Assembly: GCA_028716485.1 (NCBI GenBank)
Contig: JAQUPS010000001.1
Span: forward strand, 11,935 to 75,934
Length of the DNA stretch: 64,000 nt
Source of the DNA: Patescibacteria group bacterium
Lineage (GTDB): Bacteria; Patescibacteriota; Patescibacteriia; Patescibacteriales; WJLG01
Direction: 5' to 3'
Of the stretch, positions 56,831 through 63,010 are shown one piece after another (within the stretch, counting starts at the first letter, position 1; every line of letters starts with the position of its first letter). The notes beneath the pieces are model-generated. The model had not been told where the DNA came from and did not search any database. It was given only the letters and a program-made list of their open reading frames with translations. Both the position numbers and the translations under genes were made by a program.

Positions 56831-57216
56831 ATTAGACTCAAAAAGGTGCGGGGTGAGAGATGGGATCAGGTGTGACCCCGCCGCGATGCCACCAAAATAA
56901 TAAAATCAAATTGTTAAAAAAACTCTAACAACTGAATACTATAGATAATATGAGATAAAAAATTCTTCTTCATCTTAGAAACAAAAATGTGGGAAAATCT
57001 TCCGGTTTATTAGTACCCCTCCGCTCAATGCCTTACGGCACTTACACGTAGAGCCTATCAAGGCAGTATTCTCCTGCCAACCTGTGAAACCTAATCTTAG
57101 AGACAGCTTCGCGCTTAGATGCTTTCAGCGCTTATCAAAACCGAAGGTAGCTACTCGGCAATGCCCCTGGCGGGACAGTCGATACACCAGAGCTTCGTTA
57201 TTCCCGGTCCTCTCGT

Positions 57217-57998
57217 CATGTATAGTTCACTTATTTCTAAGTGCATAGACTATATCTTCACCCTCTGTTCCGTATTCGTAAAAAGGAACGAATTCGGGGT
57301 AGGGGTCGGCATATTATAGAAGTTTAGATCCGGATTATCCGGTACCTTCTATATCTCCCTGCTTGGGATCAGTCGTTACGGGGTCAAACCAAGTATCTTT
57401 TTCATCCGCGCGCCGGTCTGGCGCTGGGCGGACTTATAATTATCTTTCTGAATTCCGATGATGCAAGACAAAATATTTCCGCGATCTTTTTTAGACAATT
57501 CAGACAGACGTTTATTCGTTAACATGCTTGTCGCCTTTAACAAATATTCCGCCTGGCTTTTTTTGAATCTGATAAACGGATAAAGCTTTGCCAAAATTTT
57601 ATGGCATTGCTCATGTCCATTTATTCGCAATTCGGTCATTCCGTCTTTTCTTTTTGACAGATAACCGATGCCAAGACTTTGTCTTAGCCAATGAAGCGGC
57701 TCGTCATGGCGGCTGTCTTGATAAAAACAGATAGTAGCCATGAAGCGCCAGCCTCTCGGCGAATCGCTTCGTTTTTTAATTTGCAACATCAGACTGCCGT
57801 CTCCATCAAGGAAACCGGCAATATACGCCAAATCTGTTGCTTTTTTCGTGATACTTAATCGACTTCCCACGGTATTGACTTAAAATTAATTATGGTCCTT
57901 AAGCATTATGATACCATAAATATTTTGAAGCTTCCACCGTTATTAGCCGTATATTCGAGCGGGATTACTCCCGCAAGTAGCATGACCCTTTCGGGTCT
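57217..57998 (-). mobile_element. Putative group I intron A in 23S (near the sarcin-ricin loop region, about E. coli 2656) carrying a LAGLIDADG ORF
   Basis: Exon ...CCCTAGT | intron ... CATG | ACGAGAGGACC exon. Intron ends in G and the 5' exon ends in U. Boundaries by eye. Confidence 0.45.
57376..57870 (-). CDS. LAGLIDADG homing endonuclease (intron-encoded, single-motif type)
   Basis: LAYIAGFLDGDGS motif; 164 aa; same strand as 23S. Confidence 0.85.
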   Translation of the reverse strand: MGSRLSITKKATDLAYIAGFLDGDGSLMLQIKKRSDSPRGWRFMATICFYQDSRHDEPLHWLRQSLGIGYLSKRKDGMTELRINGHEQCHKILAKLYPFIRFKKSQAEYLLKATSMLTNKRLSELSKKDRGNILSCIIGIQKDNYKSAQRQTGARMKKILGLTP

Positions 57999-58072
57999 AC
58001 TAGGGAATAGACTCTGCAAGTTTCCGCGACCATAGTAGATAGGAGACCAACCTGTCTTACGCATTATTTTAT

Positions 58073-58753
58073 CGCTTGTTACCAAACGTATGGACTATAC
58101 CACCATCCGGTTTTAACCGGAGGTCAACGTGTTAGCAATGCTCTTCGCATCACTCTCTCCCTGTGCGGGATCAGTCTCTACGGGGTTAAATTATGCCTCT
58201 TCCTTTTTTTGGAGTAGTTAAGTTCCCTGAACTTATCTATCATACCAGCCAATTTTTCAAAATCTTTTTGATCTCTGACGTTTTCTTTCATCTCAAATAT
58301 TTTAATCATCAATTCCGCCTGACGTCTTTTTAAGATCAAAAAAGGTTTTACTTGGGACAGAAAATCGACTATCTCATCTTTTTTATTGATGACATATTCC
58401 ATTATTCCGTCTTTTCGTTCTCTCATATAACCGGCTCCGGCAAGAGCGCAAACTCTCGCGAAGTTTTCTTTCTCTTTTTTGGCTTGGAAAAATGCGATGC
58501 AAGGAGAAATCTGGAATCCGAACCGATAGGTCGGATTTGGTTTCAATCTTACATAGATGCTTCCATCGCCATCGAGAAAACCGGCTAAATAAGCCAAATT
58601 TTTGACTGTGATGTTTTTAGACATAATCAACTTCCCTCGGTATTATCCTAACATGTGACAGGTTATTTTGCAATAACTAATGCCAGGACTTCACCGATAT
58701 GAGTTGACTTTTTCGAATTCGATTACTCGAATAAGCCGCCAAATTGACGGTTT
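58073..58753 (-). mobile_element. Putative group I intron B in 23S (about E. coli 2586-2593) carrying a LAGLIDADG ORF
   Basis: Exon CGAGCTGGGTT | intron | ...ATGCGTAAGACAGGTTGG exon (homolog of TAGAACGTCGTGAGACAGTTCGG); 74-nt exon between introns A and B matches E. coli spacing. Confidence 0.5.
58178..58630 (-). CDS. LAGLIDADG homing endonuclease (intron-encoded)
   Basis: LAYLAGFLDGDGSIYV; 150 aa; the C-terminus ...HNLTP parallels ...LGLTP of the first endonuclease. Confidence 0.85.
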   Translation of the reverse strand: MIMSKNITVKNLAYLAGFLDGDGSIYVRLKPNPTYRFGFQISPCIAFFQAKKEKENFARVCALAGAGYMRERKDGIMEYVINKKDEIVDFLSQVKPFLILKRRQAELMIKIFEMKENVRDQKDFEKLAGMIDKFRELNYSKKRKRHNLTP

Positions 58754-59395
58754 GAACCCAGCTCGCGTGCCTCTTTAATGGGCGAACAGCCCAACCCTTG
58801 GGAGCTTCTACACCCCCAGGATGAGACGGGCCGACATCGAGGTGCCGAACCTGGTCGTCGCTGTGGACGCTTGGACCAGACTAGCCTGTTATCCCTAGAG
58901 TAGCTTTTATCCGATGAGCTTCCACCATCCTATATTGGATGGTCGGATCACTAAGTTCTGCTTTCGCAACTGCTCGACGTGTCAGTCTTGCAGTAAAGCC
59001 GGCTTGTGCCTTTGCGCTATCTCCCGGGTTTCCATTCCGGGATAGCCGACCTTTGTAAACGCCTCAGTTACTTTTTATGAGGCATCCGCCCCAGACAAAC
59101 TACCCACCAGACACTGTTCCCCGGAAGGATTCACTTCCTAGGGTAAGAATTTAGAACAAACAAGGGTGGTATCTCACTGGTGCCCGAAGGCTCCCACCTA
59201 TTCTGAACATGCGTATCCCAAATCCAATATCAAGTTATAGTAAAGCTTCATAGGGTCTTTTCGTCCAGCTATGGTTAATGAGCATCTTCACTCATCCTGC
59301 AATTTCGCCGAGTTCTTCGTTGAGACAGCGCCCAAGTAGTTACGCCATTCAAGCACGTCGGAACTTACCCGACAAGGAATTTCGCTTAGCACCTT

Positions 59396-61828: not shown

Positions 61829-62334
61829 TTAGGCAAGCCGCATACAATAAACTCGTTGGCTCATTCTTCAATAGGCACGCCGTCACCCTGGCTTGCGCCA
61901 AGGCTCCGACTCCTTATAAGTATATGGTTTCAGGTACTATTTCAACTCCCTCACCGGGATGCTTTTCACCTTTCCCTCACGGTACTAGTTCACTATCGAT
62001 CATAAAAAGTATTTAGTCTTGGATCATAGTCGACCCGGATTCACGCGGGATTTCACGAGTCCCGCGCTACTTAAGAATAATAAAGACGGTTCAATGATAC
62101 TTGTCGCGTACGGGGCTATCACCCTCTTTGGCCAAGCTTTCCAGCTTGCTTCTGCTAAATGTCATCACATCCCGCTTCGTCCATCCCAAGGGACAAAATA
62201 TACTATTCTTACAACTACCCATGAACATGTGGACTTGGATCCTTCCTAACGCCATACCCGAAGGCACAACATTATTCAGTTCACGAGATTTAGACTGGTC
62301 CCCTTTCGCTCGCCACTACTTGGGGAATCATCCA

Positions 62335-62428
62335 GCACCTTTTGAACATAACAATTTATCTTAATAAATTTTTATTTTTCATAAAAATATTAAGAAAAAA
62401 TCGTAATGTTTTATTCAAAAGGTGCGGG
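62335..62428 (-). other. 23S IVS (domain I, about E. coli position 200), ORF-less, bounded by GCACCTTTTGAA / TTCAAAAGGTGC
   Basis: AT-rich insert replacing a short E. coli segment between GGAAAAGAAAT and GATTCCCC. Confidence 0.55.
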
Positions 62429-62489
62429 ATTTTTTATTAATTTCTTTTCCTCCGGCTACTAAGATGTTTCAGTTCACCGGGTAATCTAT

Positions 62490-62593
62490 CTCGCACCTTT
62501 TCGGCAGAGCAACTTTATTTTAAAACTTTTTCGAGTTTTATAAAAAGTTACTAAACAGTTGGAATTTCTTTTCAACTGCCGAAAAGGTGCGAG
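62490..62593 (-). other. 23S IVS in helix 9 (about E. coli 130-150), ORF-less, bounded by CTCGCACCTTTTCGGCAG / CTGCCGAAAAGGTGCGAG
   Basis: 18-bp perfect inverted repeat enclosing a 68-nt AT-rich insert; helix 9 is a classic IVS site. Confidence 0.6.
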
Positions 62594-63010
62594 ATCATCC
62601 TGTCTTCAACAGGATAGGTTTCCCCATTCGGAAATCTTCGGCTCAAAGGTTGCTTGCCACCTCCCCGAAGCTTATCGCAGGCTGCTACGTCCTTCATCGT
62701 CTTTTTATGTCAAGGCATCCACCATATACCCTTAATGAGATTTTCCCACATTCTTATCGCTAAGAATGTGTTTGCTCATTTTTACTTCTTGCTATATTTA
62801 ATAACTTTAAACTTTTTGAAGTTTATAGTTCATTAACCTTTTCTAGACTTCTTTTAGACCTCTTCTTTTTTTCTTTACCTCTTCGCCTCCCCCGTCGGGA
62901 GACGAAAATTATCTAAGTATTCAGTTGTCAAAGTTCTTTACGATAGCAGTATTTCTGAAAACAATTTTTAAAAAAATTACTTTCAGAATTCTAATATCAT
63001 TTTATAATTC

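Follow-up and report, generated by a model that had tools for sequence, protein, structure and literature searches.

Why does a 23S rRNA gene run to 5756 nt, and why does the 5S rRNA gene behind it lie inside the split remains of another 5S gene? Both questions are raised by the rRNA locus in a 64-kb stretch (the window) of contig JAQUPS010000001.1, part of a Patescibacteria metagenome-assembled genome (MAG). The region is probably a 23S-5S operon, unlinked from 16S, that has been colonized by group I introns and by miniature inverted-repeat elements. The introns, all four of their sites, and the unlinked 16S are ordinary, already known biology for the candidate phyla radiation (CPR), and a first-pass annotation had for the most part described them correctly. 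The palindrome family matters more than the introns: the repeat family and the 5S nested in a 5S, which had gone unnoticed, are the less ordinary part of the locus and the part worth following.

Our evidence base comprised Rfam, Pfam, and blastn searches, global alignment to Escherichia coli rrlB, and the corresponding loci of relatives, those of close relatives (L123, L127/L128, and L125) being obtained through the neighboring EndoQ gene. Rfam gave a minus-strand LSU_rRNA_bacteria match of 1927 bits that starts at 62747 and stops early because of the introns. The gene was extended to ~57003 by blastn against rrlB, and blastn together with the global alignment reached E. coli position ~2890-2903 at 57003-56990, which sets the gene end at ~56992. 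Helix 1, read from the sequence, is GGGAAAAUC/GAUUUUCCC.

56992..62747, minus strand: 23S rRNA gene, 5756 nt in all, of which introns make up 2511 nt and palindromic inserts ~270 nt
62739..62753, minus strand: 5' arm of the 23S terminal/processing stem, GAAUGUGGGAAAAUC, pairing with 56987-57000, read from the sequence
56987..57000, minus strand: 3' arm of the 23S terminal/processing stem, GAUUUUCCCACAUU, read from the sequence

Subtracting the introns and the short inserts leaves a 23S of normal size. A processing stem had first been assigned to the 23S-5S pair; the stem (GAAUGUGGGAAAAUC / GAUUUUCCCACAU) exists, but it encloses 23S only. The absence of a nearby 16S holds for the whole window, since Rfam found no small-subunit rRNA in the 64 kb; tRNAs are located at 17.0 to 17.6 kb only, and a 5S match lies at 56714-56827 on the minus strand. 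A PilT-type ATPase gene lies upstream of 23S, an arrangement that recurs in relatives, and an EndoQ-family gene lies on the other flank, its protein being 100% identical to one from a Patescibacteria MAG at NCBI and the gene matching without difference one in run SRR22315506; the PilT-23S-5S...EndoQ synteny is common to the window and to L123, L127/L128, and L125, with exons 94 to 99% identical. Unlinked rRNA genes, with 16S apart from 23S, are common in Patescibacteria (10.1101/705046).

The window contains eight copies of the motif GCACCTTTT, where 0.84 would be expected, and these form four inverted pairs (GCACCTTTT/AAAAGGTGC), all within the rRNA operon. With two mismatches allowed, only two more matches were found outside the operon pairs, both unpaired (at 7136 and 63092), where ~2 are expected by chance. 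Three of the pairs bound short AT-rich inserts in 23S, as had been recognized at first pass; the fourth, around 5S, had been missed.

62493..62590, minus strand: palindromic insert 1, degenerate arms CUCGCACCUUUUC / GAAAAGGUGCGAG, at a hairpin tip (E. coli ~150-176)
62332..62428, minus strand: palindromic insert 2, arms CCCGCACCUUUUG / CAAAAGGUGCUGG, at a small hairpin (E. coli ~223-234)
61727..61827, minus strand: palindromic insert 3, perfect 13-nt arms CCCGCACCUUUUG / CAAAAGGUGCGGG, at a hairpin tip (E. coli 604-624)

The predicted basal stems of inserts 1 to 3 are 20 bp, 4+11 bp, and 14 bp, respectively, with RNAfold energies of -48.4 kcal/mol for insert 1 and -49.9 kcal/mol for insert 3. 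L123 and L127 lack insert 1 and show a short GCAA-type hairpin in its place; insert 2 stands in place of a different 45-nt AU-rich hairpin of the relatives; and L123 has CCGC-UCU-GCGG at the place of insert 3. The inserts have the structure of RNase III-type intervening sequences (IVSs), namely, a stem-loop at a helix tip that is absent in close relatives and has a long basal duplex.

RNase III-excised IVSs are established in the 23S rRNA of Salmonella, Coxiella, and other bacteria, and cleavage by RNase III is reported for those of Salmonella, Leptospira, and Coxiella (helix 45). Like these, the window inserts are extra stem-loops on conserved helix tips, patchy among close relatives, with long basal duplexes, and RNase III cleavage of the predicted stems is plausible. 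They differ from the classical IVSs in position (~160, 228, and 612, helices 10, 12, and 28 in the standard numbering rather than the classical helix 25/45 sites) and in that their stems share a 13-nt sequence, which is the terminal repeat of a transposable family. The window's “23S IVSs” would accordingly be described as copies of a miniature inverted-repeat transposable element (MITE), sitting at 23S hairpin tips where an extra stem-loop would be tolerated.

The fourth inverted pair (56841-56849 / 56686-56694) encloses the 5S gene found by Rfam and lies itself inside a split second 5S, the whole nested span covering 56607-56897 on the minus strand.

56859..56897, minus strand: native (outer) 5S, 5' part, reaching CCCAUC in loop C; occurs unchanged within the 5S of L123, which is uninterrupted
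56678..56858, minus strand: insert in loop C of the native 5S, 181 nt, bounded by CCCCGCACCUUUUU / AAAAAGGUGCGGGG; placed by the relatives' alignment and motif matches
56714..56827, minus strand: inner 5S rRNA gene, complete, 114 nt, canonical loop C; Rfam 5S_rRNA 81.1 bits against a gathering score of 38
56607..56677, minus strand: native (outer) 5S, 3' part; 100% identical to L123 4751-4821

The 5S of L123, L127/L128, and L125 is uninterrupted. In the window, CCGAA (E. coli 5S 42-46) has been replaced, CCCAUC-CCGAA-CUCAG having become CCCAUC-(181 nt)-CUCAG; CCCAUC is followed directly by UCUCACCCC at one junction, and GGGGCAAG is followed directly by CUCAG at the other. The outer 5S is neither a continuous gene nor in possession of an intact loop C, and because CCGAA is missing, removal of the insert could not restore it; the inner 5S is therefore likely the functional one. 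It folds with the repeat arms paired around it, and its loop C reads CCCAUCCCGAAC. Aligned without gaps to the native 5S of a relative, it is identical at 88 of 114 positions, with compensatory differences in helices I to III, so that its evolution, as a functional 5S, took place elsewhere.

A fourth copy of the element would have hit the native 5S in loop C and destroyed it while bringing in a complete foreign 5S; the way in, here as for the 23S inserts, would be transposition or recombination. The inner gene would be transcribed from the host operon promoter and probably released, the paired repeat arms acting as a portable processing stem for a double-strand-specific RNase (we infer RNase III-like cleavage), which would perhaps also excise the 23S inserts. 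Among the 645 5S genes of a survey of CPR rRNA genes, none had an insert of 100 bp or more (PMC11270868). Rfam, however, reports only the inner 5S of the window and not the split outer one, so a survey of CPR 5S genes by covariance search could miss such nesting. Stepanov and Fox (2021; PMC7812874) describe 5S expansion segments that favor the same region and leave the conserved motifs intact, and they discuss spread through recombination from mobile donors. Those segments are plain helices, whereas in the window five loop C bases are lost and a second complete 5S lies inside.

Outside the operon, the family is defined by 13- to 14-nt arms (CCCCGCACCTTTTG/CAAAAGGTGCGGGG; loci L130-L225). A metagenome scan with the pattern CCCGCACCTTTTG-N55-85-CAAAAGGTGC returned 96 loci, against ~2 expected by chance by our own estimate; nearly all are full palindromes, and almost none lie in 23S. 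For the flank count, an element was defined as CCCCGCACC...GGTGCGGGG, with (C)CCCGCACCUUUUG as the terminal repeat. The 68 distinct full elements fall into length classes of 81 to 82 and 100 to 111 nt, and an exact 4-bp direct flank repeat (TCAA, TTGA, TTTA, TAAA, or TTCA) is present in 20 of 53 distinct copies, against ~0.2 expected. The family bears the signature of a MITE and is read here as a putative one. The arms enclose 81- to 82-nt and 100- to 111-nt noncoding cargos of several types; run on 38 element-bearing loci, Rfam found no known RNA family for the 78- to 82-nt and 103- to 107-nt cargos. A separate scan of genome contigs with GCACCTTTTN{60,90}AAAAGGTGC gave 120 chance loci, of which only L062 held any 23S; with 18 specified bases, this pattern was too unspecific.

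Copies occur in proteins as well as in RNA genes. In-frame copies of 81 or 102 nt (27 to 34 aa), reading PAPFD...KRCG or TPHLLT...TKGAG, were found in proteins that include SelA (L223), TilS (L160), radical SAM proteins (L147, L170, and L191), UvrC (L186), a transglutaminase (L215), and an intein-bearing protein. One radical-SAM protein (P0248) carries a 29-aa insert that is lacking in orthologues 69 to 80% identical to it (an empty site); one of the aligned orthologues is named from candidate division WOR-3. The L215 gene (L215:250-3117, minus strand) encodes the element-derived peptide PAPFDKVRG...TKGAR at residues ~210-237 and a degenerate PAPISRAAN...ENWCG at ~330-360, the latter suggesting an older insertion in the same gene. 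Among RNA loci, two inserts bounded by the repeat (4400-4496 and 4670-4765) lie within a bacterial RNase P RNA (L159:4315-4788, minus strand) whose 76.7 bits fall short of the gathering score, one element lies 45 nt before a 16S gene (L142 and L182), and whole tRNA-Thr, tRNA-Ala, and tRNA-Arg genes lie between arms in either orientation. One contig with three copies belongs to a Patescibacteria MAG. On the names of these hosts, the family appears to cross phyla, with hosts in at least two. In a Giovannonibacteria contig (MFHF01000018.1; L226:100-160), a 3' arm (AAAAAGGUGCGGGG) stands directly before 23S position ~1760, and the DNA upstream of the arm looks nonribosomal and overlaps a called protein gene; it may be that this 23S is encoded in separate pieces and that the arms pair in trans.

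Rickettsia palindromic elements, said to have been described by Ogata et al. in 2000, and the Correia elements of Neisseria are reportedly bacterial palindromic repeats of the MITE type, and Correia transcripts are RNase III substrates. They are likewise short noncoding palindromes that occur between genes, in frame in proteins, and in RNA genes, whereas the family described here has a 4-bp duplication, a 14-nt repeat, and highly variable interiors. Neither group is known to carry whole tRNA or 5S cargo within a remnant of the same gene type. A literature search on the repeat sequence and on CPR palindromic elements turned up nothing relevant, and IMG/VR held no copies.

Could the inverted repeat instead be a host-encoded, sequence-specific RNA-processing signal that brackets stable RNAs and does not move? 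Such a signal would account for arms that run straight on from the acceptor stem in whole tRNAs and from helix I in the inner 5S, for the element that ends 45 nt before 16S, for the confinement of every window copy to the rRNA operon, and for the conservation of the sequence rather than of pairing alone. It fits poorly with relatives whose rRNA is 94 to 99% identical and has no arms, with the absence of arms from the window's own tRNA cluster, and with the many in-frame copies in proteins, the 4-bp flank duplications, and the empty-site orthologue, and we consider it unlikely. The host-signal and mobile views are nevertheless compatible, as a processing stem can equally be provided by an element that moves.

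Several of the cargo-bearing copies repeat the pattern of the nested 5S, with tRNAs enclosed in remnants of their own type. In L187/L163, a tRNA-like remnant has a tRNA-Thr in its anticodon-loop region, and the nesting there goes three levels deep; in L214 and L208, a tRNA-Ala occupies the T-loop of a near-identical remnant of tRNA-Ala; and in L200, an older pair of repeats, now degenerate, surrounds a tRNA-Thr(CGU). One of the commonest flank types, GTTTAC, is found in the anticodon loop of tRNA-Thr. The nested tRNA loci are L187:980-1200 with L163 (the same locus on the reverse strand), L136/L139, L200:830-1050, L214:780-1040, and L208:13100-13300.

We offer tentatively, and as a possibility rather than an expectation, the following reading of this palindrome family, which is found in groundwater and sediment in Patescibacteria and at least one WOR-3-like host. 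Cargo copies may invade single-copy essential stable-RNA genes and survive there because they bring a replacement, the intact gene that they carry; the promoterless copy would be expressed from the host transcript and freed by the arms. The 5S-in-5S and the tRNA-Thr and tRNA-Ala “Russian dolls” (L187/L163, L200, and L214) would represent successive rounds of gene-in-gene replacement, and in the three 23S inserts the same element would be present without cargo.

The larger part of the excess length of 23S lies in introns, of which there are four (L1917, L1931, L2593, and L2656) rather than the three first counted. The sequence itself and its alignment to E. coli gave their junctions, which were then fixed against the intron-less alleles of relatives.

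59687..60444, minus strand: L1917 group I intron, 758 nt, with an open reading frame (ORF); junctions from the sequence and E. coli alignment
59758..60297, minus strand: LAGLIDADG gene carried by the L1917 intron, 179 aa with one motif, FAGFTDGEGSF; PF00961, 64.1 bits
59673..59686, minus strand: 14-nt mini-exon AAUCGUCCUAAGGU, E. coli 1918-1931; exact match to L123, where AAUCGUCCUAAGGU is followed by AGCG
59387..59672, minus strand: L1931 group I intron, 286 nt, without ORF, core complete, last base A; from Rfam and the intron-less allele
58062..58746, minus strand: L2593 group I intron, 685 nt, IA3-like with P7.1/P7.2; junctions against L123 and L127
58178..58630, minus strand: LAGLIDADG gene of the L2593 intron, 150 aa, LAGFLDGDGSI; Pfam 35.0 bits, I-CreI/I-MsoI family
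57217..57998, minus strand: L2656 group I intron, 782 nt, IA3-like; between U2656 and A2657 in the sarcin-ricin loop
57376..57870, minus strand: LAGLIDADG gene of the L2656 intron, 164 aa, IAGFLDGDGSL; Pfam 40.3 bits

What had been taken for one intron at ~1917-1923 (59396-60430) resolves into two, 60444-59687 and 59672-59387, with the mini-exon between them. L123 confirms this: it reads AAUCGUCCUAAGGU directly followed by AGCGAAAUUCC (between 3669 and 3670 in L123) and therefore lacks exactly 59672-59387. The mini-exon is the 3' strand of helix 69 plus the following junction, and its UCGUC pairs with GGCGA of the 5' exon. The L1917 intron follows U1917 (60445), has a P1 of AACUAU/GUAGUU with U.G, and ends in G59687. 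The L2593 intron follows U2593, with a P1 of CCGU(C)/(G)GCGG with U.G and G58062 as its last base; here the site had been named correctly (~2586-2593), whereas the coordinates 58073-58753 give way to 58746-58062. The L2656 intron, whose first-pass boundaries (57217-57998, after CCCUAGU) were exact, lies between CCCUAGU and ACGAGAGGACC at 57998/57217, has a P1 of UAGUA/UGCUA with U.G, and ends in G57217. Its homologues occupy the identical junction, with CCUAGU before an intron of the form A...G and ACGAGAGGACC after it, in three other CPR genomes (L226, L227, and L228), Giovannonibacteria and Berkelbacteria genomes among them, and UAGU/GCUA is conserved in all three. A P1 with U.G could be read by eye in all four introns, and a 3'-terminal G is present in L1917, L2593, and L2656 and absent in L1931.

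The Rfam check that had been proposed for these introns gave a mixed answer. The best Intron_gpI match was the L1931 intron (47.6 bits, E 5.6e-10, full model), followed by L1917 (27.9 bits, E 4.6e-4, span 59729-59950) and L2656 (22.9 bits, E 0.014), with no match for L2593. All scores are below the gathering score of 50, so the group I call rests on combined evidence. Presence and absence at these known rRNA homing sites are exact among relatives: the L2593 and L2656 introns are absent to the base in L123 and L127/L128 (with a one-base ambiguity at each), the L1931 intron is absent from L123, and the L1917 intron recurs in L123 (94% identical, Rfam 37 bits) and, without ORF, in L127/L128. The 3' part of the L2593 intron aligns with the L2656 introns, with P7, P8, and P9 recovered, and the block ACCCCGUA(R)NGACUGAUCC, seen at first pass, is common to two introns. 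RNAalifold on the 3' parts of five introns from four genomes (the L2656 introns and the window L2593) recovered P7, P7.1, P8, and P9, with eight pairs changed on both sides in P7.1, P8, and P9. By eye, both window introns carry the IA3-type P7.1/P7.2 extension, and this IA3-like look agrees with the literature, which places L2593 introns in IA3 and L1931 introns in IB4 (PMC6125680). For the three introns that have both a U.G 5' splice site and a terminal G, there is good support for inferring homing and a return of function through self-splicing.

The first-pass annotation had given each of its three introns an intact LAGLIDADG ORF. These three ORFs are indeed intact, on the same strand as 23S, and above the Pfam cutoff for LAGLIDADG_1 (PF00961, 23.1 bits); the L1931 intron is ORF-less. 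The acidic residue of the motif is present in all three (FAGFTDGEG, LAGFLDGDG, and IAGFLDGDG). I-CreI and I-MsoI are the classical L2593 enzymes. The suggested comparison with the I-CreI family proved apt for the window L2593 enzyme, which matches I-CreI at an E value of ~1e-23 and I-MsoI at 1e-16 to 1e-34 (PDB phmmer). The nearest solved structures to the L1917 enzyme are I-SmaMI/I-OnuI-type single domains (E 1e-37 to 1e-39), and the L2656 enzyme, a distant I-CreI/I-CvuI relative, has more than 3000 homologues at E<=1e-10, many of them named from CPR phyla. All three are predicted single-domain (homodimeric) LAGLIDADG endonucleases. I-ShaI, a CPR enzyme of this kind, was found to be active (PMC11270868). 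Under the established homing mechanism, each endonuclease would cut the intron-less rDNA allele, with the intron copied in by repair, and self-splicing would then restore helix 69, the peptidyl-transferase region, and the sarcin-ricin loop.

The ORFs in the introns at L1917 and L1931 are distributed reciprocally among close relatives. In the window, the L1917 intron has its ORF and the L1931 intron has none; in L127/L128, the L1917 intron has none and the L1931 intron encodes 194 aa; and in L123, the L1917 intron has its ORF and the L1931 intron is absent (L127:2651-3793, with L128 the same; L123:2900-3670). An L1931 homologue with a LAGLIDADG ORF is also present in L208 (164 aa). This pattern is a snapshot of the homing-intron cycle of gain, decay, and loss.

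None of the four sites is new. Among 348 CPR 23S genes, Tsurumaki et al. (2024; PMC11270868) found inserts in 82%, with up to 16 in one rRNA gene, which bears out the first-pass remark that several rRNA introns are known in CPR lineages. LAGLIDADG_1 genes were concentrated at 1917, 1931, 1952, 2593, 2604, and 2657 (23IS6-8 and 23IS12-14), and site 23IS14 (2657, sarcin-ricin loop) was noted as unknown outside CPR; the sarcin-ricin site that had gone unrecognized at first pass is this published site. The window shares with that survey its phylum-level host, the four sites, the enzyme family, the single-domain size, and the presence of several introns per gene, and for the introns there is no essential difference. 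The survey scored inserts of at least 100 bp against E. coli, leaving short ORF-less inserts uncharacterized (PMC11270868). LAGLIDADG introns at L1917, L1931, and L2593 occur together in the LSU (large-subunit) rRNA of Synechococcus sp. C9 (Haugen et al. 2007, PMC1995217), where the ORFs likewise extend from a peripheral loop into the core and L2593 has P7.1/P7.2; in contrast, the window L1931 intron has lost its ORF and terminal G, and the window has a fourth intron at L2656. A literature search on L2656 by that name turned up nothing relevant.

Taken as a whole, the first-pass reading was of three LAGLIDADG introns plus three RNase III-excised IVSs, giving a fragmented 23S with a novel sarcin-ricin site. 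The three LAGLIDADG ORFs, the 14- to 21-bp stems at hairpin tips, and the absence of the inserts from relatives all agree with it, and the IVS behavior established in Salmonella and Coxiella gives it a precedent. Such behavior has been suggested for CPR as well (PMC11270868). It is refuted for intron count, as what was placed at 1917-1923 consists of a pair of introns separated by a 14-nt exon, and for site novelty, as the sarcin-ricin site is published and recurs in other genomes. Furthermore, the recurrence of identical 13-nt arms, together with target-site duplications, in proteins, in tRNA loci, and in RNase P RNA is not what a host RNase III signal would lead one to expect. We regard this reading, as an account of the whole locus, as rather improbable.

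The L1931 intron poses a puzzle at its 3' boundary, which in the window was set by the empty (intron-less) allele. Its 3' end is GCUA (before AGCG) in the window, GAUU in L127, and GAUA in L226, and only in L208 is it CUAG. The guide GCUGCCU is kept in all four and yields AGGU/GCCU with U1931.G, a pairing of only 4 bp, to which the window clade adds a 9-bp upstream-exon pairing, AAUCGUCCU/GGGACGAUU. In each copy lacking the terminal G, a G sits three bases before the boundary. The window copy is either spliced three bases early, leaving three extra bases, or retained in the rRNA; with its ORF and terminal G lost, it is probably decaying. A model with the 5' splice site at U1926, from AAUCGUCCU/GGGACGAUU, and a terminal G at 59396 (L1926) was rejected on two grounds: AAGGU could not be restored from CAAAGCGAUU, the L127 tail beyond that G, and the L123 allele places the boundary between U1931 and A1932. 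In Simkania negevensis, the L1931 intron is reported to remain unspliced in the mature 23S (Everett et al. 1999). That case is a precedent, at the same site, for a large insert between U1931 and A1932 kept in a working ribosome; the Simkania intron keeps its ORF, whereas the window copy has none and its retention is only a possibility.

Several points weigh against reading the region as an operon colonized by introns and inverted-repeat elements. A missing 3'-terminal G, as in the L1931 introns of the window, L127, and L226, is unexpected for a working group I intron, and the L2593 intron has no Rfam match of its own. A very limited search found no transposase beside any copy of the repeat; the nearby small ORFs (S15, SSB, KhpA, glutaredoxin, and NYN) are housekeeping genes, and we rejected them as transposases or RAYT-type proteins. 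Nor did that search turn up, in the fetched loci, long terminal-repeat pairs that might represent an autonomous element. The four window copies have no target-site duplication, their junctions show replaced host bases, and, beyond the arms, the interiors of the window inserts are unrelated to each other and to the 96 metagenomic loci. The lack of duplications and the unrelated interiors mean that the window copies could have come by recombination rather than transposition, and they may have been remodeled under selection or acquired by recombination. Splicing, stem cleavage, and the choice of the ribosomal 5S are all deduced from sequence, and the genome may hold a further rRNA operon elsewhere.

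A decaying pseudogene, or an assembly chimera of two strains, would explain both the nested 5S and the defective L1931 intron, which lacks its terminal G; the contig comes from a MAG, and a 36- to 52-nt stretch identical in the inner and outer 5S could mislead an assembler. We consider this very unlikely. The exons are 94 to 99% identical to those of relatives, with no disabling changes seen, and none of the three ORFs is broken. A chimera formed where a repeat is shared yields a join, whereas a duplication that is nested and has two novel junctions is not its product, and analogous tRNA nesting recurs in independent samples (L136/L139 and L163/L187). CPR genomes, moreover, usually have one rRNA copy (PMC11270868). 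Least likely of all is that the stem-bounded inserts are new protein-dependent introns, removed by an endonuclease and a ligase as at archaeal bulge-helix-bulge motifs to restore 23S, 5S, tRNAs, and mRNAs: like archaeal introns, they are found in mRNAs as well as in tRNA, rRNA, and RNase P RNA, and the stem brings the flanks together, but removal of the 5S insert cannot restore loop C with CCGAA missing, the outer tRNA halves either lack stem strands or fail to pair with one another, the copies within ORFs preserve an open frame and for the most part measure 81 or 102 nt, implying that they are translated, and there is no bulge-helix-bulge geometry.

Some features of the surroundings deserve mention in their own right. 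Upstream of 23S lies a perfect sigma-70 consensus, TTGACA-16-TATAAT (63216-63189, minus strand), followed ~100 nt on by a terminator-like hairpin with a T run (63089-63071); the region 63071-63216 is partly conserved in L123 and could encode a small RNA or leader. A pair resembling a diversity-generating retroelement (bAvd plus reverse transcriptase) lies a few kilobases from EndoQ in relatives (L125:6687-8154 and L126:7489-8912). Subthreshold Rfam matches in the operon, to microRNA families and to Trp_leader (56559-56656, minus strand, 27.6 bits, overlapping the 3' half of the outer 5S), were dismissed as spurious.

For the introns, the locus adds one more well-resolved example of a known CPR pattern. 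The palindromic inserts tie rRNA “intervening sequences,” whose origin had been unclear, to a transposon family that can be defined and that has both terminal repeats and target-site duplications. The 5S gene, reported to be free of large inserts in CPR, can apparently be split and functionally replaced from within, and annotators should be aware that covariance-model searches report the inner gene and hide the nesting. If the gene-in-gene reading is true, it would constitute a way of invading essential RNA genes that is distinct from self-splicing, and it would show how a mobile element may colonize single-copy essential RNA genes in reduced genomes.

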